Source: Promethearchaeota archaeon
GTDB lineage: Archaea > Asgardarchaeota > Lokiarchaeia > Sigyniarchaeales > SOKP01
Assembly (NCBI GenBank): GCA_048937405.1
Contig: JBHLNF010000003.1
Span: 64,001 to 128,000 of the forward strand
DNA length: 64,000 nucleotides
Reading direction: 5' to 3'
Part shown: positions 1-64,000 of the stretch, piece by piece
How the letters are laid out: each line of letters starts with the position of its first letter
Position numbering within the stretch: the stretch's first letter is position 1
Program-made: the position numbers and the translations under genes
Notes under the pieces: generated by a model
Databases searched by the model: none
Told to the model about the DNA's origin: nothing
Seen by the model: the letters and a program-made list of their open reading frames with translations, nothing else

Positions 1-528
1 ACGTGCTAATTCTGGTTTTCCTATTACTTCTTCTTTTGACATATAATCTATAGTAATTAATAGATCCTGTTCTATAATTTTGTTTGCCTCATCGACAAAA
101 TCCCGTAGTTTTTCAGGAGAATAATCTTGCATTGAGAAATCCATTCTCGTTTTATCTAATTCAATTTGATTACCTGTAATTTTTGCATCAGCTCTTTTAT
201 AAAGAATACTGCTAATTAGATGTGAAGCTGTATGATATCGCATGAATGTATACCTTCTTTCCCAATCAATTTCACAACTAACTTCATCTCCCTCCTTTAA
301 TCCAATTTTATCTACTTCATGACTTATTTCTCCAGAGAATTTACCAACATAGACGACTTTAAATTGTTGATCATTTTTTTTAATAAGACCCTCATCCCAA
401 GGTTGACCTCCTCCCTTGGGATAAAATGCTGTTTGTTCAAGAGTTATATATTTTCCATCTTTAACACCAACAACCTTAGTATTCCAAGTCTTAAGATAAG
501 CATCATCCATATATAAAGCTCTCTTCAT
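1..528 (-). CDS. alaX: Alanyl-tRNA editing protein AlaX (AlaX-M type), runs off the left edge
   Basis: Reverse strand from ATG at 528 reads MKRALYMDDAYLKTWNTKV...ILEQTAFYPKGGGQPWDEG...RYTFMRYHTASHLI. It has the GGQ motif and HxxxH zinc motif of AlaX. Missing from the ORF track because it is edge-truncated. Confidence 0.92.
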   Translation of the reverse strand, partial: MKRALYMDDAYLKTWNTKVVGVKDGKYITLEQTAFYPKGGGQPWDEGLIKKNDQQFKVVYVGKFSGEISHEVDKIGLKEGDEVSCEIDWERRYTFMRYHTASHLISSILYKRADAKITGNQIELDKTRMDFSMQDYSPEKLRDFVDEANKIIEQDLLITIDYMSKEEVIGKPELAR

Positions 529-3294: not shown

Positions 3295-4341
3295 GTGCTT
3301 TTAATGAACACTGTGGAATTAGCGGGGAGTAGTTTTGAAGTAAAAAATGGATTCCTGGACTTAAGCCTTTTAGAGATAAAAGACATAACTGAAATACAAG
3401 GATTATCAAAATTATCTGATTTAAAGAATTTAGAATTGAGTTCCAATGATATATTACATATAAAAGGATTAGAATCGTTAACTGAATTAGAAATATTAAA
3501 TCTAGGAAATAATCAGATTATCGATATTAAGGGCTTAGAGGGACTAGAAAACCTCAAAGTGCTACATCTTATCAGTAACCAAATAAAGGAGATTAAAGGA
3601 TTAAAGAATTTAAATAATTTAGAAGAATTATATTTAAGAGGAAATCAAATAAAAAATTTAAAAGGATTTGATAATCTAAAATCTTTAAAAAGATTGGATC
3701 TTTCTTGGAATGAAATCTCCGAAATTCAAGGATTTGAAAATCTAATAAATCTGGAAGTTTTATGGATTGCTGGCAACCAATTAAGAGAAATAAAAAATCT
3801 AGAGAATTTAAGAAACTTAGAAGTATTAAATTTGGCAGGAAATAATATTAATAAAATTAATGGTTTAAAAAATCTTAGTAAATTGAAAAGCCTTTACTTA
3901 AATAATAATTCAATCAAAAAAATCGAAGGTTTTGAAGCGTTAGAGAGTCTAGAAACTCTTTGGCTTAATACAAATAAGATTTCAGAAATTGAAGGATTAG
4001 ATAAATGTAAAGATTTAAGAATTTTAAATTTAAAACAGAATAATATTAAGCATATTAAAGGTTTGTATTTACTGAAGAATTTAGAAAATCTTTTTCTCTC
4101 AGAAAATAAAATTGGGGAGATTAAAGGTCTTGAGACATTAATAAAATTAGAAACCCTCGATTTGGGTCAAAATGAGATAATTCAGATCAAAGGATTAGAA
4201 TCTTTAGTTAATTTAAAAGACTTATGGCTCGCGGATAATCTTGTCCCTCAGAAAATTCTAGATCAGCTCGGAGGGCTTGATAGTGGAGGTTATGCAAATG
4301 AACCTCTAAAATTTGTGCAATATTGCATTATAAACCTGTAG
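3295..4341 (+). CDS. Leucine-rich repeat protein (Sds22/internalin-like 22-aa repeats); ATG at 3304 may be the true start
   Basis: About 12-13 tandem LxxLxLxxNxIxxIxGLxxLxx repeats. Confidence 0.93.
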   Translation: MLLMNTVELAGSSFEVKNGFLDLSLLEIKDITEIQGLSKLSDLKNLELSSNDILHIKGLESLTELEILNLGNNQIIDIKGLEGLENLKVLHLISNQIKEIKGLKNLNNLEELYLRGNQIKNLKGFDNLKSLKRLDLSWNEISEIQGFENLINLEVLWIAGNQLREIKNLENLRNLEVLNLAGNNINKINGLKNLSKLKSLYLNNNSIKKIEGFEALESLETLWLNTNKISEIEGLDKCKDLRILNLKQNNIKHIKGLYLLKNLENLFLSENKIGEIKGLETLIKLETLDLGQNEIIQIKGLESLVNLKDLWLADNLVPQKILDQLGGLDSGGYANEPLKFVQYCIINL

Positions 4342-11271: not shown

Positions 11272-11685
11272 ATGATTGATAAGTTAAAATCCATGCTTAA
11301 AGAGTTAGAAATTAAAAAAAAAGAACTGCAACCAAAAATCAATGAGATTAATTTGAAGCGAGAGGAAGAAATTCAAAAAATAAATCAAAAATATGATCAT
11401 TTGTTATATGATGTTAATTATACAACACGGCAATTAGAAAATGAATTTTATAATGATCTAATCAAATCATTTATAATGATTGTTACCCGAGAATTTGATT
11501 TAAAAAGGAGTTCAGATATATATGACATATCCAATGAATTCAAGGTTTACAAAGATGAAATTGCTCAATTTTCCGAATTTCCTGAAGACTTAATCGAGAA
11601 GATGGATAAAGTTATAAATGGTGCCCCTATTGAGAATATCATGTATGAGCTTGAAAAAATTCAAAAGAAATTCATGAAACCTTAG
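11272..11685 (+). CDS. Hypothetical coiled-coil protein
   Basis: 137-aa ORF with an E/K-rich heptad N-terminus. Confidence 0.75.
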   Translation: MIDKLKSMLKELEIKKKELQPKINEINLKREEEIQKINQKYDHLLYDVNYTTRQLENEFYNDLIKSFIMIVTREFDLKRSSDIYDISNEFKVYKDEIAQFSEFPEDLIEKMDKVINGAPIENIMYELEKIQKKFMKP

Positions 11686-11835
11686 ATTCTAATATCTCCT
11701 TATTTAATTTATATAATATTAACTATTCTGAAAGAAATACAGAACTAATTATATAATATTTAGATATCACTTAGATAAATATGTGTAATTAATTCTCTTG
11801 AAATATAGAACGTTACAATAATAGGTAAAATTAGA

Positions 11836-22394: not shown

Positions 22395-22456
22395 TATTTT
22401 TCATTAAGAGTATAAAGAAAATTTAAATAAAAATGATCAAATAGGTGCCAGATTAT

Positions 22457-37400: not shown

Positions 37401-40400
37401 ATCAGCTGTATGGAGAACTTGCGTATAATGGACATGATCATCTTTGTTTTATAATTGAAGGTGTATCTGATGACCGACGTTATTATTGGAATTACTCGAT
37501 TTCTACAAATATAGCAATTAAAGGAGCAGAATGTGACGTTTCGTTTATGTTAAATAAATATGCAGATGGATATACGAAAGCTTTTGATCGTGAACAAGGT
37601 ATAATATATTTACTAACTGATAACGGATTAGAAACATTCTATGAAGAGGATTTTCAGGCGCCTATCTCAGTTATAACTGAAAACTATTTCTGGACATTCG
37701 ATAAAAAATTCTACAAGCTTGAATATCCTAACTTATTGAAATTTGATTATGATTGGAGGATATATTCTGGCTCTCATTATGATATTGATGTTAGTAACAA
37801 CGGTCTTAATTCTATGTGTTATCAGAATGGATACTGGTATGTGGCTGATGGTAATTTTATAAAGAAATTTAATGCGGAGTGGGTATATCAAACAGAATAT
37901 TTTGTAGGTTCTGAAGATACACCGATATCTCTTAAGTTTAATGAAGATGATAGTTACTGGTATATGCTGGGTGAATATAGTTCAACGGTGTATAGATATG
38001 ATTCTAACTGGGTATATACAGAAACATCATATAATATAAATCAAGACGCAGATCCAAGAGGGATTTATTATCATAATGGATACTGGTGGATGTGCGGTAA
38101 CGAACGTGACAAAATCTACAAATACGATAATCTTTTTACGGTTTCTAAAATATATCAGGGAAATGGAATTTTATACTGCCAAACGGGTGCTACTGAAACA
38201 ATATCATTAAGAAGTAATAGTCTTGATCTTGATCTAATACCTGGAGATATTATTGAAATTACATATAACACCACTTCGACACACGAGATAATGTTTAATT
38301 TGTTAAGCTCTGGAATACAACAAAAAGGATTTAAATTGATACAAGAGGGGAATAAAAATTTCGGTACTAAGACTGTAGGATTTATTCTTGATAATTTTGA
38401 TGATTTTTATGATAATATAGATCAACTCGAATTTACTGGAACATTTGACGATACTCACAATTTAGTAATAGATCACATAAAGATATACCGCATTCCTCCG
38501 AATATTTTTATGAATGTGTCTTGTGGGAATTCGTATAACAACTCTTATAATTTACCATTTATAGTAAATAACATCAATCCCTATGTTGAATTTTACAATT
38601 CCGAGAATGAATTAGTGCAAACAGTAAGGTTATTCTCAAATGTGAGTGATATGAGAGTACAACTTTATTCCAATGAATACTTATACCTATACACAAGTAC
38701 AAAACTACCAGCAAACACGCATTTATGGTGGGAAATTGGTAGCGGAGAATTGTATCTTGTAGATGCTGCTGATCAAACTCAATTGTATGTATCTACCGAT
38801 GAAGGAATGACCTGGATTCAGGTAGATATTGATCCTTCTGACACTTCTGGAGATGCTAAATCACGAGATCACAACATCCAATCAGCGTGGCATGACAACG
38901 TAAGTCAGGTTATATGGTTTGTTGATTGTGATGATGGAACGGCAGACAATTTCGATGTGTGGAAACTTGATTACAGTACGAATAAAACGCACCCAACTAT
39001 AACAGAAATAGGAACTTCTAGTGGTGCTGATGCAGGTAGTGTGATGTTTACGGATATTTTTGTATATAGTTCAGATACATATGTTGTAAATTATGAGGAG
39101 AGATCAGGCACTAAAGTCGTTGTCGTTTGGGATGTGGATACTGCACCATTTACTCAGGAGGGTATACACTATCCAGGCAGTCCAGCGACACATGTTGAAC
39201 TGTCTTTTGTTACACTTATAGGTGATGATGTCTATCTTACTGAGGAACTTGACACAGGACAACCATCACCCATGGATTCAATTCGCATACTGCGTTTTGA
39301 TCTTTTTACCTCATCATGGGGCGCTCCAGATTATCTAAGTGGGTATGATATGCTAGAAAGGGGTATCGTCTATGATGGTAATGATACTATATATTTTATG
39401 GCTGCTAACATTGCTGATGGCAAGAATTATGTATGTTCTTATTCTATTTCAACCTTTACAATTACAGTGGGACAAGAAAATAACATTTCATTTATGTTAA
39501 ACCGAAATGCGGATGGATATGGAAAAGCATTTCATACAAATGGCATAATATATCAAATTACTGAAAACGATATTGAGTTGTTTAATACTAGATCTTATGA
39601 TGATGATGTAATCGCTATTACAGAAGGATATATTATGACCGCAAACGGTAAGTTATACATCTTTGAAAACATTACAATTACGCGGAACAGGTTTAAGGTA
39701 CCATTTCCAGATTTAAATCCTGGAGAGGAATTGGCGGATATAAGAGTTGTTACTATTAGCGGTACCTCATATGAATTTTATTATTTTATAGATGCAACTG
39801 ATCAGGAAATTTACATCAATTTACTAACAGATGAAAACATTGATGGTACATATAATGAGATATATATACGGTACGGATTTACTAACACATCTATCGGATT
39901 TCATCAGTTTTATGGATATTACGACTTAAAATCAACTCTTTTTATCCCAGAAGGGAATTATACATTAAAAGGCTACTTTCATGATATTTCGGGTACAGTT
40001 TCTAAATTTTTATCAAATACAACACATGTAATTGATTTTGAAAGTCCTCGGGTGTTCAAGCAATTTGAAGAAAGTGTAATAATTAATAATCTAAAAGATG
40101 GATTTATTTCATTCATTATTGAAGATTTTAGCGGTATCGACGAGTGCTTTTTCCTTGATCAAATTTTTGATGGGTATTGGGATGTTCAAGGTAATCTTTA
40201 TACCTATTACTTTACTGATCCCCATGCGACTATATTTTTATCTGAATTTTCAACCCCTTCTTTGTGGAATTTCAGCGTCGCCTATGGGAAATTGGACTAT
40301 CATAATCTTGAACATATTGATAATATCAATACAACAATTTATGGTGAGTATACCACATATGACACTCCAGAACAACCCAGCGACGTCATTGTAATAGATG

Positions 40401-43400
40401 GAATTATTACAGATTATGGAAATCTCGAATTTATTGATAATAACGAAACAACAATTGATGCCGAGTATAGCGGTAGTTCATATGACATTAATGCAGAAAT
40501 ATTAATCGATGGGATACCGCCAAATATAAATGACTGGAGGTCCTACCTCAGATTTAATCATAGTTCTACTGCAACTATTGATTTTGATATATGGGATTAT
40601 ACATTATCCGATTGGCAAGATATAAGCGCAGGCCATTATCCAGCAACCTACAGTTTTGAAAACGATCAAGCTGGGCAAAATCCTAGTGAATGGGATATAG
40701 ATGAAACAGGAGGGACTGTCGACGTTCTCGCTACTTTTCAAAGACATGACAAAGTTGTAAAAATTACAGATAGTAGCGGTTCTGATTATCCACGATTTTA
40801 TCAAAGTATCGATTATTTATCATATGGAAAGGTGGAATTTTGGATTTGTGCAGGTGAGACTGATAGAATGCATCGTTTTGCGATTGTTGATTATATGGAT
40901 GAAGGACTTGAGTTTTATATGAGAAATAATGGGCAATTTTCTTATTATGATGTTAATGGGTATCATGATATAGGCGCATATATTACGAATCAATGGTATC
41001 ATATCAAAATAGAATTCGGTCTTACAGACTGGCATCTGTGGATAGATGGTGTTTCTAAGGATCAAGGGAATGGATATGGATATTATGGATATCGTATACC
41101 ATTTACTATTATGACTTTTGAAACAAATTCAGGGGAAACTGGCGCTGATTTTTATATTGATGCAGTAGGAACTTCTTGGTATTCAAAGAAATATAATATC
41201 GGGGACAATAAATACGCAACTCAATTATTATCTACTGATTTAATTAACAATCGCGTTGTAAAGGTACGGTATATAGCCACTGATTCAACCGATTTTGTAC
41301 TAGACATTGATCAACTCCGAGTAGATTACTATGATGATAAGTATAAAATAGAAGGAGAAATTGAATGGTCAGTAGATGATCCAATTTTATATTCAATCGA
41401 TTCGCTACGATTTAGTCAGTTTGTTGAAAACAGACTTGATAATTTTGATATATGGAATTATACATTAGGTAATTGGCAGGATATTTCAAGTGAAGACAGT
41501 CCATTTACACTTTCATCTGATTTTTATGACAGTAGCAATATTATAAAGGTTCGTTACATAGCATCTTCTGATACCACTTTTGGCTTAGATTTAGATCAGC
41601 TCAGAACTGATTACACAACTACAATACCAGTTGAAGGATTTGTATCCACATTCCATTTATTTGTTAAGGATACCGTGGGTAATAATAATACAATTGGTAT
41701 TTCACTCGCATTTGATGATGTGCCTCCTGCGATTGAAGATTTGTACATACATACCAAATATTGGAATGAATTACTGAGAATTGATATAAAGATCAAAGAT
41801 ACTTCTGATTATGATATTTCATTGATGTTAAAAAACATCATTAACAAAGCAACCTTTACTCGGTTGAAATACACCATCACAAATGTAGGACAAGATGAAT
41901 GGCAGATTTTGTTAGATACATCTCAACTGCCGAATGGCTTGTACGATATTTATCTCACCATAACAGACATAGCGGGAAATTCACTTATACATGTTATTGA
42001 AGACATATATTTGGATAACAGTCCCGTAGAATTTTTGTATCTTGAAGATAAAGTAATAATCGACGACATTTCGATGTATAGTTTTGTAATTGATGATGTA
42101 TTATATTTCAATGATAGAAAAGAAATAGCTATTTCTGCAATTGACATTACCTACGACGGTTTTAGCTGGAGTTTAATTGATCCAGCGCTGGGTATTCAAC
42201 AAGGGGTTCATAATATTACAATGTATATAACAAACGAGCTTGCTTATCACCCCGTTGTGTTATCAACCGAATTGAATTATGATACACTTTCATATGTAAT
42301 AATCGGCTATGGTACCTATCCAAATATTATATATGATACACAAGCCATCAAGGAAATCAAGCGGTTGAAAATTAATGATGTAGTTATAGAAAATAACGGG
42401 TTTTCGACCTCATTTACTGGAGGTTCATATGTATTGCATATTGATCCTCATTATACATATTTACTATCCCCATTAAATACAATTGAAGCCGAGTTCTATG
42501 AACGCATTGAAGACGGCATTTATTTTGAGTTTGATAGTATTAGTATGGAATGGGTTTTGAAATCAAGTGGAAAAGATTTCTTTAATATCTCTGAGTATCT
42601 GTCACTTTCTGAAGGAGAAGAATTTTACTTTTGGTTCGAATTGGAAGATGGAATGGGTGTTGCCAAAAATGGTTCGGTATCATATAATCCGTGGTGGAGA
42701 TACACAGGGATTAATTATCCAGTTTTTCCAGTTAACGAAACATCTCCAAAAAGCATATACTACCAAAATGGATATTGGTATGTGCTTGGAGATTATAACA
42801 ATAAAGTATTTAAGTACTATTCTAATTGGATACCTACTGGTGAGTCATATTCCATTGCTTCTGAGGATAACCTACCACAATCGATCTATTACTATGATGG
42901 ATATTGGTGGGTATTGGGTCAATTTAACAAAACTGTGTTTAAGTACAATCCAGACTGGACTTATACTAACTTAAACTACACGATAGATGAAGATGCCTGG
43001 CCAACTTCAATTTTTTATCATAACGGATATTGGTGGGTGCTCGGAAATGCTCAATCAGAAGTATTTAAATATAACTCTGATTGGACATATTCTGGAGAAT
43101 CATTTTTACTCGAAACAGAGGGAGATCTAAGTGACATCAATTTTGAGGGAGGATATTGGTATGTCTGTTGCAATGATAAAAGAAGGATATATAAGTACGC
43201 AGTTGATTGGACATATTTGGGAGAATCTTTTTCAGTAAACGCGAATCCGACCGCTATTCATTATGCAAATGACTACTGGTGGGTTCTGGGAGAACAGTCA
43301 AGAATATACAAGTATATGTGGCAGACTTCGAATGAGACAAGGGGAAATATCTTTATCACCCATACCTATAAAGGAATTTATGATAATTCAATTGAACGGA

Positions 43401-49400: not shown

Positions 49401-52400
49401 GAATTTGGAGTGATATAACCGCTGATCCTAATACATTCGTAATAATAGATATGGGAGTTCCGAGCGAAGCATATATGTTAATAAAAAGTTCTGAAAGTTC
49501 TGGAGGATCTTTATTTTTTTCATCAAAAGATAATACAAGAAATCTCCCTATTCTTACTCATTATCTATACAAATTTCACCAGGATGATGGTCGTATTTAC
49601 ATGCAAAGCAATATAGAAGAACAATTAACTATAAGAAGCCCTGTATATAGCAGTAAAACCCAATTGAAACCTGGAAACATACTTTCTATTGATTGTCAAG
49701 GAACTACTCCGAATGGCATGCACTTGAATCTTTATAACGATGGGCAACTTGTCAAGTCATTTGCAGTGGATGATAACTATAATAGAAAGATTATAAACAT
49801 TTTAATCCCTGAACAACTCATTTTCAACCAATTAGAGTTTACGGGAGCCTTTGTGGAAAATTCGATATTTCAAGTATATGATATTTGGGTAGAAGTGAAA
49901 AACGAGTATAGAGAAAATTTAGAATTTAAGGGATATGATCATGAGATTGTAATAGGACAGCATGTAGATTACGGTCCAATTACATGGCCTCAAGCAAATC
50001 TTTATGAAAGCATGGATAATATATCCTATGGTAAAGTTGATGATGAAAGATACTGGACGATCCGATCTCAGGATATCGATAACAATCAGCACTTACAAGT
50101 GGATATTTTATTTTTCAATACTATAAATCACGAGGAATTGGATCATATTGAAATCAACTTGGAGGGGTATTGTACCTATGCTCAATGGCTTGAGAATGCA
50201 ATATTTTATTTTATGAACTACAGAACTGGTGTTTATGAAGAAATGATCCCTTCAATCAATGGGGATACACTTACTTTCACAATAACAGATGGCAAGAAAT
50301 TAAACAACAGAAATATTTTGATTCGTATTGATATCACATGGCCTAACTCGGATTCTTATTTTGAATTAAATATCGATCGACTGGTCGCTACAACCTATGA
50401 TAAGTGGAAAGCAGATCATGATGTGTACCGTTTAGTGTACACCCTTGAAAGAAGACCAGATGGCTATGATGATGGACAGGTATGTTTCTCAGTAAATGAT
50501 AATGTAGCGATCAACATACTAGATAATCAATTTTCTCCTTCGGGATTCGGATATAAAGATAAAGTGTATTTCTACTATGATTTTTCAACCAACATGTGGA
50601 ATATATACCTCCAAAAAGAAAATCCTCCCCAAATTCAACCGTTATTATCTCTTTATGATCCCAATCCAGTATTTCGCGCAATTCCCAGGATCGAAACATT
50701 ATATTCTGATACAGATCAGGGTATTAAATTATATTCCATAGAATCTCAGTTCTTGAAGCGCATTTCTTCGGAAGAAGATTTCATCAAGTATAAAGCCTTG
50801 GTTGAATCCTATAAGACAGAAGGGTATGTTGATATGTTAAACATTGATTATCAAGACTTTTTATTTACTCCTGAGAATACATTTACGCAGCTCAGTTCTG
50901 ATATTGATATATTTTATAGCTTTAATGATGCAATGAAAGAGCAAAATGTATACAGTTATGAAATGCTACCTTCATTTATGAATGAGGATCAAGCAGATCT
51001 TTTTGATTATGAGTATGATTCCTTTTTAGAGAAAAATTATATAATAAACGGAGATGAGCAGGCATCAATTGAGGGTTGGTATAACGTCTCGGTGGTCAAT
51101 GATTGCAGTTTTCCAGCATATGCTTGGCTACTTCCAAAGAGTACTGTCTCTAATGATGGATTTGAGATTATGGGAGATGAAACTACTATACATGGGGCGC
51201 TAGATGATACAGGAGACGATAATTCTTATTCAGGAGGCGGAACAAAAATTTACGGGTACAATATGGACACATGTGAACTTGGGTTTGGAACAGGTCATGA
51301 TATTCCGACTGATAGTACGGTAACCGCATTAAAGGTAATTATAAAATGGGCTGGTGCTAGTTATGGGACTATTGTGAGATTTAAAAAAGGTGGGTTTATT
51401 TCATCATGGAAAAGTATCTCATATTATACGTGTTGGGAATATAGATGGTCTTTATTATATTGGGATGACTTGAGTTTAACCGATGTTAATAGTATAACAG
51501 TCGAAATTAAAGCTCAAGATTACACGGGTATATTTATAGATGCTTTATTTGTAGATTATGATTTTTCTGTTCCAGTTTCTAATGATGATGAAGAAAAATT
51601 GGGAGGCTTTGGAAGTCCTCCTGATGATAAAACATATACTGTATCACGTGGAAGAGTCGCCTATAGTAATTATGATACAAATTATCAGCATGTAGCTCCT
51701 GATACTCTTTATACCTTTTATTATTTTGATGATCATTATGATGAGACAATTGCACCAGATTGGTGGAAGGCAACTGGGGATCAAAAAACCGCCTATTTTT
51801 GGGCGCGTAGTTACGGGAAAGATGTTGGTGATCCTGGAGGAGTGCATATGGAAGTTATCCAAGAATTTAGATATTACACTGATTGGACAAGTGGAGATCC
51901 TCTTCCAGATGAAATCGATATAAATTTGAATATGAGGGCTTGGGGTTCTTCTGGATCTGATGATGATAGTCATCATCCTTCCTATCATTATACCAATATA
52001 GAAATTTATAATTACAGGTTAAGTGAATGGCAACATTTCAAAAACGTTCCTCTAAGTTCTAGCTCTGGACCTTTCTCGTGGATCAATATCAATATAAAAC
52101 CCTATACTGTGTATGGTGGATATGATGCATATTTGTATCGTCCTGAAGATTATTTAACATCGAGTGGAGAATTTAAATTTCGCATATACTCCAAGTCACA
52201 TTCATGGGGTCTATATAGGACTAGTACAAATGGGGTAGAGTTAGACTATTTATCTGTAAAGGTGTCTTATCTTCCGAAATCGGAGATACATTTCACATTT
52301 AATGATCCAGATATTACAGACGGGGCAAACGATTTCATTCTTTTATTTGAAGGAAAGACTACCCAAGGAACATATAGTGGAGTAGATCCTTGGACAGCAC

Positions 52401-55400: not shown

Positions 55401-58400
55401 TAGAATTTGAGGAATTTATATTAGATGATAATAAAGTACGCATATCCAAAGAAGTGTTAGATGCTAACTTGTTCTATGATATTAACGCTCAGAAGTATTT
55501 ACTACGGTGTAAATTGGAATATTTCTGGGATTGTTTCTTCATCATTAATTTTGCAACAGGTAATAAACTGGAAGTCGTTGCTGAATTGACATTAGATAAA
55601 TATGATCTTAGTGTATTTTACACGAAGTATGAGACGACAAGGATATCAGCAGATGAGTATGATATACCCTTTGATATGGCCGCTATTGATGCACCGAATT
55701 ATATTGAAAATGTTGTTGAAGGACATTATCCAGCGACCTACAGTTTTGAAAATGAAGTTGGCGAAACTGATACAAATATTGAGTGGATCGATGATGTTTA
55801 TTCTGGAGCTCATGCAGAAATAATTAATAGTCATCAAGGTCATAATGCAGTTTTGGAATTTAATGTCGATGCTGGTTATCAATATGCAAAAATAAACGAT
55901 TTAAACCTAGATCAAGATTCTGGAACAGTTGAATTTTGGCATCTCTATGACACAGAGACCTTTCAATGGCAATTTAGAGACTTTAGTGGCAATTATTTAT
56001 TCCAGATTAGAATTACTCCTACCCATATTACATTCTACTATGACGGAACTACTTCATATATTATTGATACTACCACCGAATGGGTACATATCAGAAGTGA
56101 CTTTGATTGCGCGAGTGATTCAGTAAGTTTTTATGTAAATGATTTTCTTATTGTTGACAATCAACCACTGGATAATAATAATTCATTAAATCAGGTGATT
56201 ATTCAAACTAATTCTAATTCAGCAAGCCGATGTTATGTTGACGCAATAGGTTATTCTTGGGATATCAATTATATAATTAATGATAATAAACATGAAGATA
56301 CAAAAGTAGCAAAACTTCTTGCAAATGATCAAGAAATTGATATAGGAGTGCTTGGTGGATTTCTTAGGAATATTGATTCACGACAGAGATTAATGTTAAG
56401 GCAAAAACTCTTCTATAATTTTACAGAAAGTGAACTTGACAGTTTTCAAATATTATTGGATCAAAAATATTCAGATGTACAACTAAGATTCATGAATCCA
56501 ATTGGTTGGTTAGAATACCCTATTAATGATCGATTTGGTAAATATAGCACCTCTATTTCAGTTCCGATCTATCCTGATGATTTTAATTTAATTAACGGAT
56601 TATTAACGAGGCAAGGAAGTCTTTTGGGTATCAATAACGATTATCATACAATTGTATCAGAATTATTACGAACCGAGTATCTAAAATTAAGCGAAATGCC
56701 AATAGCAGGTGACTTTAATATCACTTTGAACTGGGGAGATCTTGAGTATATTAATGGGGATTTTGCATCATTTGCTTCCGAAATTTCAGGTTCGTATTAT
56801 AGCAGTGATTATAAAATTCCTAACCAAGTACAATTCTCATTTACTGAAGGTGTGTGGAACTACTATGATAAAGGAGCTCTCAACTATGATGATAATCAGA
56901 ACTCAATGATTACCGCAACATCAAGTAATAGTAGTTCAGAATACGAAATTCCAGTATACGGACATTATCCTGCTACCTATAGTTTCGAAAATGAGATACC
57001 AGAAACTTCGGGAACAGATATAGGTTTTGTAGATCAATCGAGTGGAAATGTAGAGATTATCGATAATTTTAACAATCATTATCATGTTATTGAAGTAAAT
57101 GATACTGACTCATCTGGACATTATTTCAGACATAATATTCCGACAGCGCTATCTGAAGGGTCTATAGAATTTTGGATATGCGCATCCGATGTTACTCAAG
57201 AAGTAGAGATCAAACTTATGAATACAATCACAACAACTGTTTGTAGAATTCATATTTTAGCTGATAAATTTCAAGCATTTTATAATTCTCAATGGAATGA
57301 TCTAACCACCATTCCTTATGATAACACATGGTATCATATAAGAATAGATTGGGAGCAAATTAATAATAAATTTTCTGTTTTTATAGATGGTGTAGAGGAG
57401 GTTTCATATAAAACAGTTGAGGATAACGGTAATGTGAAATCATTCCAAATGATGAGTCAAACCACAGATCAAAACTATTTAATATATTTTGATGCATACG
57501 GATGCCCTGAAGAAGATTTAAGCTACACTCTCGGCGATAATAAAAAGGAAAGCGGTAACTTTAATGTAATTACAGGAAATCTCATCTATGGTGATCTTGC
57601 CGATATAGATAGCCAGGTATCAACTATATCAGTTACAGATCCAGGTCTTCCAATGATACAAGGGTGGGATTATGTACGAGATATTACATTAAGTCCACCA
57701 ACCCCAGAAGATAACTATCAGGTAAAGGTGCAATTAGATAGCTCAAACTTTGATTATTCTAAAGTAAAATCAGGTGGTTCTGATTTACGATTTTATGCTA
57801 GTGGCGTATTGTTGAATTATTGGATAGAGTCATGGGATATAACAGGATATTCTCTTATATGGGTAAATGTCCCAGATGCAGGAACGTCTGTGATTAACAT
57901 GTATTACGGAAATTCTGCAGCAGTGGCAATGAGCAACGGGTCGGCGACATTTCCTTTTTTTGATGATTTTGAAGGAACAAGTTATGATAACAATATATGG
58001 TATGAAGTATATGATACTACTGGAGAAATTAAGGAAAGATATGTAAATGTATCTGATAGTATAGCTGAATTATATATAGAACTTGACCCAGATGATTGGG
58101 GTGGACAATATACTCCAGAGATGCGGTGGGAAAGAAGTGCTGTTGGATGGCTTGATTTCTGGTCAACAGGGGGGACTTATGGAAATAGGTATCCGAATAG
58201 TCTTTGTTTCCTTGAAGACGATACCATGACAAGGAGGGATGGTGGAGAGATTGAAACAACTAGCAATGTTGCAGCTTCTGAATGGGTTTGGACTATTAAA
58301 GAGGTTGTTTGGATCAATTCTTCATCAGTCAAGTTTTATGAAAATGATACTTTTCTATCAGAGCACACAAATTCTAACGCTATACCAATTTCTGAAACAG

Positions 58401-61400
58401 TACCGATACAATTTTATCTCGGCTGTGGATCCTATCCAAACGGTTGGGATCATATGCTAGGTTTAGAGTCTATTGATAACACTCTCGGTGCTGAAGGTAG
58501 AGCTCTAAGAAGTTTTACTTTAAATGAGTGGAATGAAGCTACTGATGACGATATTCTCATATGTCTAATTGATTGGGTCTTTATTTATAATATTAATGAA
58601 ACGGAGTCAGTCGCTAGCATAGGATCTGAGTCCTTACAGGAATATTCTGTAAATGCAGAAATTGAGTGGTCTGTTGATGATCTAAATCTTATATCAATGG
58701 ATTATTTAAGTTTTGAATATGATGATATTCCAGAGGGGTGGAATTATTTAGGGACTCATTTTGATGTACAGGCTCAAGATGGGCGTCCAATGGGAATTAC
58801 CTGGGATGGTACACATTTTTGGGTTGTTGGAGATGGTAATAGTGAAGTTTATCAATACACAACTGCGGGAGTGTATTCCGGTACTCATTTTGATGTAGGA
58901 AGTCAAGCTAATTACCCAGTTGGAATCACTTGGGACGGAACATATTTCTGGATTGTATGTACATCAAATGATGAAGTCTATCAATACACAGCTGCGGGAG
59001 TGTATACTGGTACTCATTTTGATGTAGCAGGTCAAGATACGAGTTTAGGTGATATTATATGGGATGGAACTTATTTATGGGTTTTAGGATTTGTTAACCA
59101 AGAAGTATATCAATATACGACCGCAGGGGTGTATACCGGAGTTCATTTTGATGTTACAGGTGATAGTGGAATCACATGGGACGGTATCAATTTCTGGGTC
59201 CTTTCAGATAGTAATGATGAAGTTTATCAATATACAGCTACGGGAGTGTATACTGGTGTTCATTTTGATGTAGGAAGTCAAGGAAATCAGATAATAGGTA
59301 TTACATGGGATGGAGGAAATTTATGGGTTATGCATGGAGAAGGACCAGGAGGAGGTAATCCAGAAGTTTACAAATATATATTCTTTGAATTTAATTTTGA
59401 TATATGGAATTATAATGCTGAAGACTGGCAGGATATTTCAAATGAAACTAGTCCATTTGCACTGACTACCGATCATTATAATAGCAGCAATACTTTAAAG
59501 GTTCGTTATATAGCTTATTCTGGTAGTCCTTTTAATATCACCATTGACCAATTACACATTGATTATACACAAGCTACTGATTATATGGTTGATGCGGTAG
59601 CAGAAATAACCATTCAGGATGATGTGATGTATGAATATCAACAAACAAGTGCTAAACAACCAGCAAATACACACTTATGGTGGGAACTTGGTGATGGTGT
59701 ATTTTATCTTGTAGATTCAACCGATCAGTCCAAATTGTATGTGACATTGGATGAAGGGAAGACCTGGGCTCAGGTAGATGTCGATCCTTCGGATACTTCA
59801 GGAGATAGTAAATCGCGAGATCATAAGATTCATTCTGCTTGGCATGATAGAATAAATAAGATTATCTGGTTTTTGGATTGTGATAATGGTGGTACTGCTG
59901 ATAATTTTGATGTTTGGAAATTAGATTATACAGTAAGTAAAACGAGTCCAACTGTAACGGAAGTAGGGACTTCAAGTGGGGCAGATGCAAATAGTGTGTA
60001 TGCTTATGATATTTTTATGATTGGTAGTAATGTGTTTGTTATAAATTTGGAAGAACGTTCTTATACTCAAACTATGGTAATTTGGGACGTAGATACTGCT
60101 CCTTTTACTGAGAAAGATACAGATACAAGCGAAGGTGTAAATAGAAACACATATATGTTTGGTGCAGTCGTAGGAAACATTTATTATAATTGCTTCGAAG
60201 TCGATAGTTTTAAAGTATTTGAATATAATGACTCTGCAACCACAATCTCATGGACATCAGAAGCATTATATACTCCCCCTTCTAACAGTAATTTAAAAGC
60301 AATGACGTATGATGGTTCAGATGTAATTTATATGATTGGAGATAGATGGGTGGTTGATCGATATGTAAACTATTTACTTTCTTATTCAATTTCAGGAGGT
60401 TCATGGACGGTAGGAGGAGAAGAAACTAATGTTGCATTAATGCTTAATAGAAATGCAGAAGGGTGTGCAAAAGCATATCATCTCGAAAATGGAACTATAT
60501 ATTATATCACCACAAACGGTCTTGAAGTAATGTATGACGGTAGTTCTTATTTTGATGATGATGTTATCGCAATTACTGATACTTATATTATGACTGATAG
60601 TGATATTATTTACAAACTTATCGGGCAAAATGATATAAATATTGAATCTGTAGACTATCTATTTTTTGACCATATTGCATCTGTAGGCACCAGCTTTTTT
60701 GTTTGGAATTATACTGCAGGTTCATGGCAAAATATTTCCAGTGAGTCAAGTCCTTATTCTCTTAAAACCGATCATTATGATGGAAATTACACTATACTTG
60801 TGCGATATCTCACAGGAGTATCTATCAGTTCATTTGATTTGGATATTGATCAATTAAAAGTAAATTACACGAAACTCGCTAATCTCTATGATGTACATGC
60901 TGAGGTGGTGTGGGATATTACGGAAGTTATTCAATCAGTGGAATATTTGATGTACTCGCATAAAACTTCAAGGGATGTAAACTGTACAATGGAAATTTGG
61001 GACTTTACCTCTCAGGAATGGGATCTGGTAAACAGCTCTATCAACTCTATTGGATTTTTCAACACATCCTTTGATTTGAGCGATCCTCGATACCGTAATG
61101 CAACCAATCATGTGAAAATTCGGTATACAACTAAGGGGCTTCCTACAGAATTTAATCTTCTCATTGATAGATTGCGGGTGGATTACACCTCAATAGATGA
61201 GATTTATGGTATTGATGTTGAAGTTACATGGAATGTCTCAGATGAACTTTTCTATTCATTAGATTTCTTGAAATATTCCTATAGAACTAATGAGTCAATT
61301 GATGTAGATCTTGATATTTATAACTACACCTCGCAATCATGGGTAGGTATAGAAAGTGTAATAAACTCAGAGGTATTTAATGATGAATCATTTACGCTCA

Positions 61401-64000: not shown

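Follow-up and report, generated by a model that had tools for sequence, protein, structure and literature searches.

What kind of structure does a protein chain form when four short segments of one repeat type precede, and four longer segments of another type follow, a single DUF2341 unit? The question is raised by nucleotides 56558-61525 of the window, as we term the 64,000-nucleotide stretch of a Promethearchaeota archaeon contig (Lokiarchaeia) analyzed here. The segments lie within a single open reading frame (ORF) that runs from window position 22445 to beyond 64000 (genome coordinates G000:C13:86445-148304), makes up the final 41.5 kb of the window and encodes a giant protein of 20,619 amino acids (aa). 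An earlier note, made from the sequence alone, had termed the short segments stubs and the long ones bodies and had proposed that they build a nested stalk. We consider it probable that the stretch encodes a hairpin stalk in which a split jelly-roll of the carbohydrate-binding module (CBM) type is recursively nested in copies of itself, with a cargo domain at the tip and further modules as side branches.

The layout read by the earlier note was confirmed by translation, by regular-expression and hidden Markov model (HMM) scans and by Pfam: four stubs of ~35 aa are followed by the DUF2341 unit and by four bodies of ~105 aa, two of them interrupted, which start exactly at 58643, 59582, 60887 and 61205. 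The stub motif F.(V/I)..G......G.L..(I)(D/N)......I.(S/A)E is present four times, and the bodies, which end in F.L.ID(Q/R)L..(D/N)Y, are recognized at E-values of 1e-17 to 1e-40. The last stub is split by a GHYPATY module, as had also been claimed; the residues EIPVY (~56927-56959) precede the module (56960-57514), and the remainder of the stub, here termed stub 4b (FNVITGNLIYGDLADIDSQVSTISV, 57539-57652), follows it. Linkers measure only 5-9 aa from stub to stub and 1-3 aa from body to body, in agreement with the requirements of tight stacking. Apart from these four segments, the stub HMM detects just two more in the entire 20,619 aa, at aa 5938-6006, which immediately precede the only other two bodies (aa 6013-6392). 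In total, the giant protein thus holds six stubs and six bodies in clusters of 2+2 and 4+4, with stubs occurring only alongside bodies. On sequence grounds the pattern is not a product of chance, because a profile of the body (A1) matches only 181 of 1.84 billion representative proteins and because the counts agree in both clusters.

The relationship between the two kinds of segment was addressed with an intact-domain HMM built from 15 natural units in which stub and body are contiguous, all of them taken from other proteins and none from the window. On the giant protein, positions 5-46 of this HMM fall on the four stubs and positions 55-149 on the four bodies (7e-12 to 1.4e-19). In the two-storey cluster, positions 2-116 match aa 5970-6088 without a break, corresponding to the inner unit, and the match ends where a ConA-like module interrupts it. 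The HMM matches, together with the models described below, support the reading that the stub supplies the N-terminal two strands, and the body the remaining strands, of one domain. The same contiguous units settle whether intact homologues of the bodies possess a stub-like N-terminus, the lack of which the earlier note had named as fatal to its proposal: they do possess one. The single intact domain that the earlier note had placed within the window at 49920-50398 turned out not to be detectably related (phmmer independent E-value, iE, 0.46; intact-domain HMM iE 0.25; hhalign probability 13%). No Pfam family covers the stub or the body, and sequence searches of the PDB with the body and intact-domain profiles returned nothing significant. 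Several Pfam matches in the metagenomic relative P0008 (BPL_LplA_LipB and others) were set aside as artefacts of near-identical repeats. For stub 4b, the value obtained with the seed stub HMM (1.1e-15) is high by construction; the segment falls within a 51-53%-identical match in a genome of the same genus (G041), the aligned stub of which is found by the iterated stub HMM at 4e-5.

Structural models were obtained with AlphaFold2 (AF2) for a three-level homolog (P0087:108-656) and for the window's own two-storey cluster (window:40241-41641), and both were compared with 48,161 PDB representatives by VIA-align. The P0087 alignment comprised 49 colinear and nested rows (one-level rows covering 84-346, two-level rows covering 40-433 and one three-level row covering 8-549), and the resulting model of three stubs, tip and three bodies had a mean predicted local distance difference test score (pLDDT) of 75 and a predicted template-modelling score (pTM) of 0.55, with pLDDT values of 92-97 for stubs 2 and 3 and of 87-98 for bodies 1 and 2. 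Some 40 single-domain CBMs and similar jelly-rolls align with this model over 117-129 residues (Z 9-11, root-mean-square deviation ~3.1) in the range 42-46..433-443, which corresponds to stub 2 (45-76) plus body 2 (352-433), ~118 residues, and spans the entire inner unit; matches at Z 10-11 include 1gwk_A (CBM29), 2zew_A (CBM16), 8xmz_B, 6sgf_A (CBM86) and 2xom_A (CBM61). A second class of matches covers 121-135 residues over 77-80..341, that is, stub 3 plus body 1. The model of the window's own cluster, based on an alignment of 18 rows (A8), has pLDDT values of 89 for the outer stub, 85-92 for the outer body and 73-84 for the inner stub, and is poor in the ConA-like insert and the adjoining strands of the inner body, because the cargo rows added noise there. 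Most of its VIA rows run over 37..366 (inner stub plus split inner body, Z 7.5-9.5), and three rows of 114-116 residues run over 1..459-462, joining the outer stub to the outer body (6sgf_A, Z 7.9; 2zew_A, Z 7.5; 9vql_A, Z 7.0). Both models draw the same CBM families. They support the view that stub and body together form a CBM-like jelly-roll, and that two levels of it are nested, one set of them in this very protein.

The family at large was surveyed by iterating the stub and body HMMs over their matches and writing each protein as a string of stubs and bodies. In 89 of 114 clusters from the 181 family proteins, the run of stubs is as long as the run of bodies (68 clusters of 1+1, 18 of 2+2, two of 3+3 and one of 7+7). 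Shuffling the body counts gave a mean of 57 agreements and reached 89 in none of 20,000 trials; when only the clusters with any count of two or more are considered, 21 of 46 are equal, against a shuffle mean of 14.3, a value reached in 23 of 20,000 trials. Given that the proteins are related and many of them are fragments, these statistics are indicative and not exact probabilities. The last stub is usually separated from the first body by a single cargo domain of 130-230 aa; the gap can also measure 2-21 aa, which amounts to an intact domain. The G041 homolog (L019:9096-10910, ~600 aa) is a compact version of the inner part of the stretch, with two stubs, DUF2341 and two bodies and without side branches. 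The deepest case is P0008, in which a signal-peptide-like start is followed, at aa 103-1242, by seven stubs of 42 aa each, a tip of ~130 aa and seven bodies. Its stubs fall into the subtypes divergent, G, G, G, S, S, A and its bodies into a, b, b, b', c, c, divergent, blocks which imply that the two arms apparently expanded separately by local tandem duplication. A parallel pairing, of stub k with body k, would fit these blocks and was rejected, since a tip of ~130 aa and its short linkers are too short to span seven storeys, and pairing in the models follows the mirror order.

We therefore propose the following architecture. The building unit would be one β-jelly-roll of ~140 residues, of CBM type, split after its first two strands, and the site of the split would receive a complete guest, be it a cargo domain or a further copy of the split domain itself. 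With four nested copies, the chain would run up through stubs 1-4, form the cargo at the tip, DUF2341 with a LamG-like part, and run down through bodies 1-4, pairing stub 4 with body 1, stub 3 with body 2, stub 2 with body 3 and stub 1 with body 4. The N- and C-termini of this 1,650-residue unit would meet at its base, so that the giant fibre could continue past it. Side branches would be formed by three modules in extra loops of the inner storeys, namely the ConA-like module, a domain of five blade repeats and an insert of ~335 aa, and the product would be a projecting, branched arm displaying lectin-like modules on an archaeal surface protein. Of the proposals in the earlier note, the nesting of this split domain is supported at two levels, on the combined evidence of HMM, count parity, AF2/VIA and the G041 homolog; that one nesting grammar, used with a second fold family, is a general design rule of the protein would be a further possibility. 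For levels 3 and 4 of the stretch we infer the same pairing from homology, from parity up to 7+7 and from the short linkers, and a linear stacking of storeys, a stiffness due to the double crossing of the chain and an inside-out order of folding would follow on similar grounds. We rate as about as likely as not the broader notion that Loki-type Asgard archaea have, in the recursive split jelly-roll, a device dedicated to building stalks, in which stub/body pairs would set a depth of one to at least seven storeys and two chain crossings would tie adjacent storeys. Folding would then proceed tip first, as an inside-out zipper, with the outermost stub unpaired until its partner is made, more than 1,000 residues further on.

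Several observations weigh against this architecture. Stubs 2 and 4b are individually weak by the independent HMM (iE 0.17 and 0.49), and contact between stub and body is deduced from the first and last residues aligned by VIA and from the aligned lengths. The Z values of the window model (7-9.5) lie within the range that VIA terms middling, and the outermost, third level of the P0087 model failed (pLDDT of 31 for the stub and 50-84 for the body), the alignment having a single row there. For the piece from stub 4 to body 1, MAFFT scattered the family rows over ConA, DUF2341 or propeller parts, and G041 provided the only colinear homolog. Counts are unequal in 25 of the 114 clusters, mostly with more bodies than stubs; in these, stubs may be dispensable for some bodies, or copies may escape the short stub HMM. 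Finally, the Pfam family GH114_assoc (PF14741), an N-terminal domain of GH114 endo-α-1,4-polygalactosaminidases, aligns mainly to the body, which might then be a near-complete domain. Among Pfam families, this one alone gave weak matches repeatedly, with four of 18 intact units at E<=1 (best E 1.6e-5). Two individually reported matches, mainly over the body, score 17-18 bits, below the 22-bit cut-off, and the window's own copies have no match to it. GH114_assoc clusters are also among the fold rows of the ESM Atlas, and we know of no split or nested form of this family.

The unequal clusters, the unpaired third level of P0087 and the alignment of GH114_assoc (126 positions) to the body alone would all fit a reading in which stubs and bodies were two independent tandem arrays, the former hairpin or linker repeats and the latter autonomous β-sandwiches, with parity arising from coincidence or co-duplication; bodies 3 and 4, compact units of ~105 aa with 6-7 predicted strands, could be seen in the same light. 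Against this reading, which we regard as unlikely, stand the existence of contiguous stub+body units that behave as one HMM, an equality of counts far above that of the shuffles, and models in which stubs have pLDDT values of 89-97 and CBMs align over 114-129 residues from a stub into its matching body, when a body alone has only ~86-93 residues. Somewhat less probable still is a nesting that is real for the inner one or two levels only and leaves stubs 1-2 and bodies 3-4 as unpaired leftovers of duplication. Confident models anywhere reach two levels only, as does the G041 homolog, and bodies 3 and 4 are of the IDRL subtype, as against IDQL in bodies 1 and 2, and are matched by the terminal bodies in fragments from Loki's Castle; yet counts match at 3+3 and 7+7 in other proteins, the outer level is the best-modelled part of the window's two-storey model, and stub 1, the outermost, gives the strongest stub match to the independent HMM (6e-7). 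About as little weight can be given to completion of the bodies in trans by the stubs of another copy, as in donor-strand exchange, to give dimers or a surface mesh. Antiparallel inter-molecular pairing fits equal counts and a split fold equally well, and levels 3 and 4 are compatible with cis and trans alike. Against it, two levels are closed in cis with high confidence in the AF2 models of monomers; the short linkers, and a tip cargo placed precisely where the stubs end and the bodies begin, are in keeping with a hairpin; and the commonest arrangement, a single stub, cargo and body (68 clusters), is most simply read as a cis insertion.

The closest described systems are the RTX (repeats-in-toxin) adhesins AhLap, FrhA and MpIBP, which contain units of a split domain plus a ligand-binding domain (PMC12077191, PMC10865825); in AhLap, heterotypic nesting reaches up to three levels (RTX beta-roll, then vWFA, then an insertion), in a paper that does not use the word "nested" (PMC12077191). 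As in these adhesins, a host β-sandwich is interrupted by a complete guest with adjacent termini, after which the chain returns and finishes the host, an order seen here in the HMM coordinates and the model ranges, and a lectin-like guest is projected away from the fibre axis. Unlike in these adhesins, the host is a CBM-like jelly-roll and not an Ig-like extender, and the guest is usually the same split domain, 2-7 deep, with the stalk itself built from split domains. The RTX adhesins are, moreover, secreted by type I secretion systems (T1SS) of Gram-negative bacteria, whereas the present protein belongs to a Promethearchaeota archaeon. Neither the stretch nor the preceding 10,000 aa gave an RTX match in Pfam, and the stretch showed no sign of RTX repeats or of a T1SS signal. 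Because host fold, secretion context and organism all differ, the stretch is not a member of the RTX-adhesin system. With regard to β-sandwich CBMs (jelly-rolls of the CBM4/16/22/29/61/86 type), the stub+body unit superposes on single-domain members, but identity in the structural alignments is only 6-13% and no CBM sequence match was found in the PDB or Pfam; the domain may be a scaffold rather than a lectin.

Other surface proteins use related principles with other folds. In the Gram-positive pilus tip adhesin RrgA, CnaB/Ig domains are nested in one another with an adhesive vWA domain at the tip, and in streptococcal antigen I/II the N- and C-terminal A/P repeats pair in antiparallel fashion, as an alpha/polyproline II helix pair, to place a variable domain at the end of the stalk. 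To our knowledge, both involve two or three heterotypic levels at most and no self-similar recursion, and natural domain nesting rarely exceeds two levels and is almost always heterotypic, domain insertion itself being common. No description of homotypic recursive nesting was found in the literature searched on nested or recursive adhesin insertion, on Asgard giant proteins or on archaeal DUF2341. What is new here is one split jelly-roll nested in copies of itself; split-domain display as such is known from RTX adhesins.

By analogy with that display, the stretch most likely serves as a branched arm that projects from a giant fibre on the cell surface and displays its modules. The family appears to use one split domain recursively, with four levels in the stretch and seven in a metagenomic relative, and, if the proposal holds, it represents an undescribed way to build rigid, branched display arms. 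The outermost two strands would then be made 1,000-1,600 residues before the rest of their domain, which would make these proteins a natural test case for the folding of discontinuous domains. The arrangement also suggests a template for engineering stalks of tunable length that return the chain to their base. For Asgard biology, it offers a structural reading for part of the largest Loki-type Asgard proteins, and the surface structures and cell-cell contacts of Loki-type archaea bear on ideas about syntrophy and eukaryogenesis. In practical terms, the stub and body HMMs combined with a parenthesis grammar would allow cargo to be located automatically in giant proteins, much as split domains do for the ligand-binding domains of RTX adhesins.

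Table 1. Segments of the proposed nested stalk, its cargo and side branches, and the second nest of the same giant protein; residue r of the protein corresponds to window nucleotide 22445+3(r-1).
Feature	Window position (nt)	Residues (aa)	Strand	Evidence	Predicted partner
Stub 1 (outermost)	56558..56665	11372-11407	+	Stub HMMs; intact-domain HMM positions 5-40, iE 6e-7	Body 4
Stub 2	56693..56797	11417-11451	+	Stub HMMs; intact-domain HMM positions 23-41, weak, iE 0.17	Body 3
Stub 3	56813..56935	11457-11497	+	Stub HMMs; intact-domain HMM positions 5-46, iE 0.014	Body 2
GHYPATY module, ConA/LamG-like jelly-roll, side branch at start of stub 4	56960..57514		+	Paralogs/orthologs	
Stub 4b (innermost)	57539..57652	11699-11736	+	Intact-domain HMM positions 9-43, weak, iE 0.49	Body 1
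Tip cargo, DUF2341 then LamG-like part, ~320-aa unit	57662..58630		+	Pfam PF10102 at nt 57776-58003	
Body 1, N-terminal strands	58643..58762		+	Body HMM positions 1-46	Stub 4b
Five tandem ~43-aa blades inserted in body 1, putative 5-bladed β-propeller	58763..59386		+	W-D-G repeats	
Body 1, C-terminal strands	59387..59578		+	Body HMM positions 33-104, 2.3e-17; intact-domain HMM positions 76-149, 7e-12	Stub 4b
Body 2, first strand (YMVDAVAEITIQ)	59582..59623		+	Motif Y.V.AE(I/V) in translation; body HMM resumes downstream at position 12	Stub 3
Insert of ~335 aa after first strand of body 2	59624..60628		+	One Asp-box-like motif	
Body 2, remaining strands	60629..60877		+	Body HMM positions 12-103, 4.4e-18	Stub 3
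Body 3, uninterrupted	60887..61204		+	Body HMM 2.2e-40; intact-domain HMM positions 58-149, 1.2e-17	Stub 2
Body 4, uninterrupted, outermost	61205..61525		+	Body HMM 1.3e-39; intact-domain HMM positions 55-148, 1.4e-19	Stub 1
Second nest, two-storey: stub, stub, body split by ConA-like module, body	40256..41620		+	HMMs, AF2 model	

The cargo types of the stretch (DUF2341 plus LamG-like, ConA-like and propeller-like repeats; Table 1) are all typical of extracellular glycan or ligand recognition, and we infer that its modules bind glycans. DUF2341 matches PF10102 with 74.4 bits, compared with a gathering cut-off of 23.4 (E 1e-20), and the unit is 35-51% identical to free-standing DUF2341 units of relatives; a search for homologs with DUF2341 between stub and body returned mostly propeller-only or DUF2341-only proteins. 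MAFFT repeatedly placed family stubs onto the DUF2341 segment SNFDYSKVKSGGSDLRFY (window 57800-57860), which could be due to chance or to a stub-like hairpin within DUF2341. The GHYPATY module shares 25-29% identity and 12 invariant columns with seven paralogs or orthologs. PF13385 (Laminin_G_3) matches seven of the eight aligned modules (best E 1e-9), which marks the module family as ConA/LamG-like, and leaves the copy of the stretch alone without a match.

The earlier note had also described both body inserts as propellers. The first, situated between the second and third strands of body 1, has W-D-G motifs at aa 12120, 12163, 12206, 12245 and 12288, with a period of ~43 aa, and ~30 metagenomic homologs at 30-55% identity. 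Its nearest ESM Atlas clusters belong to the SMP-30/NHL/Glu_cyclase propeller families (0.94, a lead only), and it has no Pfam match and no significant PDB sequence match, so that the propeller is putative, by repeat structure and the Atlas lead. The insert in body 2, which had been read as an Asp-box propeller, contains a single canonical S/T-x-D-x-G-x-T-W Asp-box (TLDEGKTW, aa 12434), whereas a propeller of that type should have several, one per blade; it has no BNR Pfam match at E<=1 and only weak leads (PDB G-beta, E 0.065; Atlas DUF6242_C, 0.90; Atlas BNR, 0.86, below the lead threshold).

Across the family, the cargo that most often separates the stubs from the bodies is a domain of ~130-170 aa with the motif (S/T)YTKA..G.L..T..DDSNY ... 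YYFKLVE, for which no Pfam match was found; examples are L015 (G014), ORF aa 3090-3225, and P0008, aa 398-515. This domain has a stub-like G.L...D..Y motif of its own. Several arrangements occur side by side in a 3,661-aa relative (G012:C50; L013, ORF aa 1120-2354). One consists of two stubs, cargo and two bodies, another (aa 1565-1697) is contiguous and intact, and in a third the cargo apparently lies within the stub hairpin.

In a sample of 300 genomes of the phylum, the body profile had matches in 17 of the 68 genomes that belong to the window's family, in one of 21 of another family and in none of the 211 others, and the ORFs that carry bodies are almost always 2,000-14,500 aa long. Bodies 3 and 4, used together as a single protein query, found no relative in the genome contig search. 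Named relatives of the stretch, all annotated as hypothetical proteins, originate from sediment at Loki's Castle and from metagenome-assembled genomes of Promethearchaeota. A surface location is suggested for the family proteins because the homologs P0008 and P0087 have signal-peptide-like N-termini. In the giant protein, no signal peptide is evident within the first 140 aa after the GTG at 22445, and the true start of the ORF may therefore lie downstream. The conserved body motif D-I-(W/Y)-N-(Y/F)-T includes an N-x-T sequon in all bodies, those at window 60887-61525 among them, and N-x-S/T sequons are dense across the whole stretch, which would fit an N-glycosylated extracellular protein.

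The source genome comprises 4.47 Mb in 29 contigs, with a GC content of ~30%. Within the giant ORF, GC content is 0.41-0.44 at window 26-34 kb, compared with 0.33-0.36 elsewhere. A gene for a leucine-rich-repeat protein (LRR_4, E 2e-59) lies at window 3295-4341 on the + strand, and the remaining flanking genes are metabolic, encoding glutamate dehydrogenase, TatD, aconitase and fumarase.

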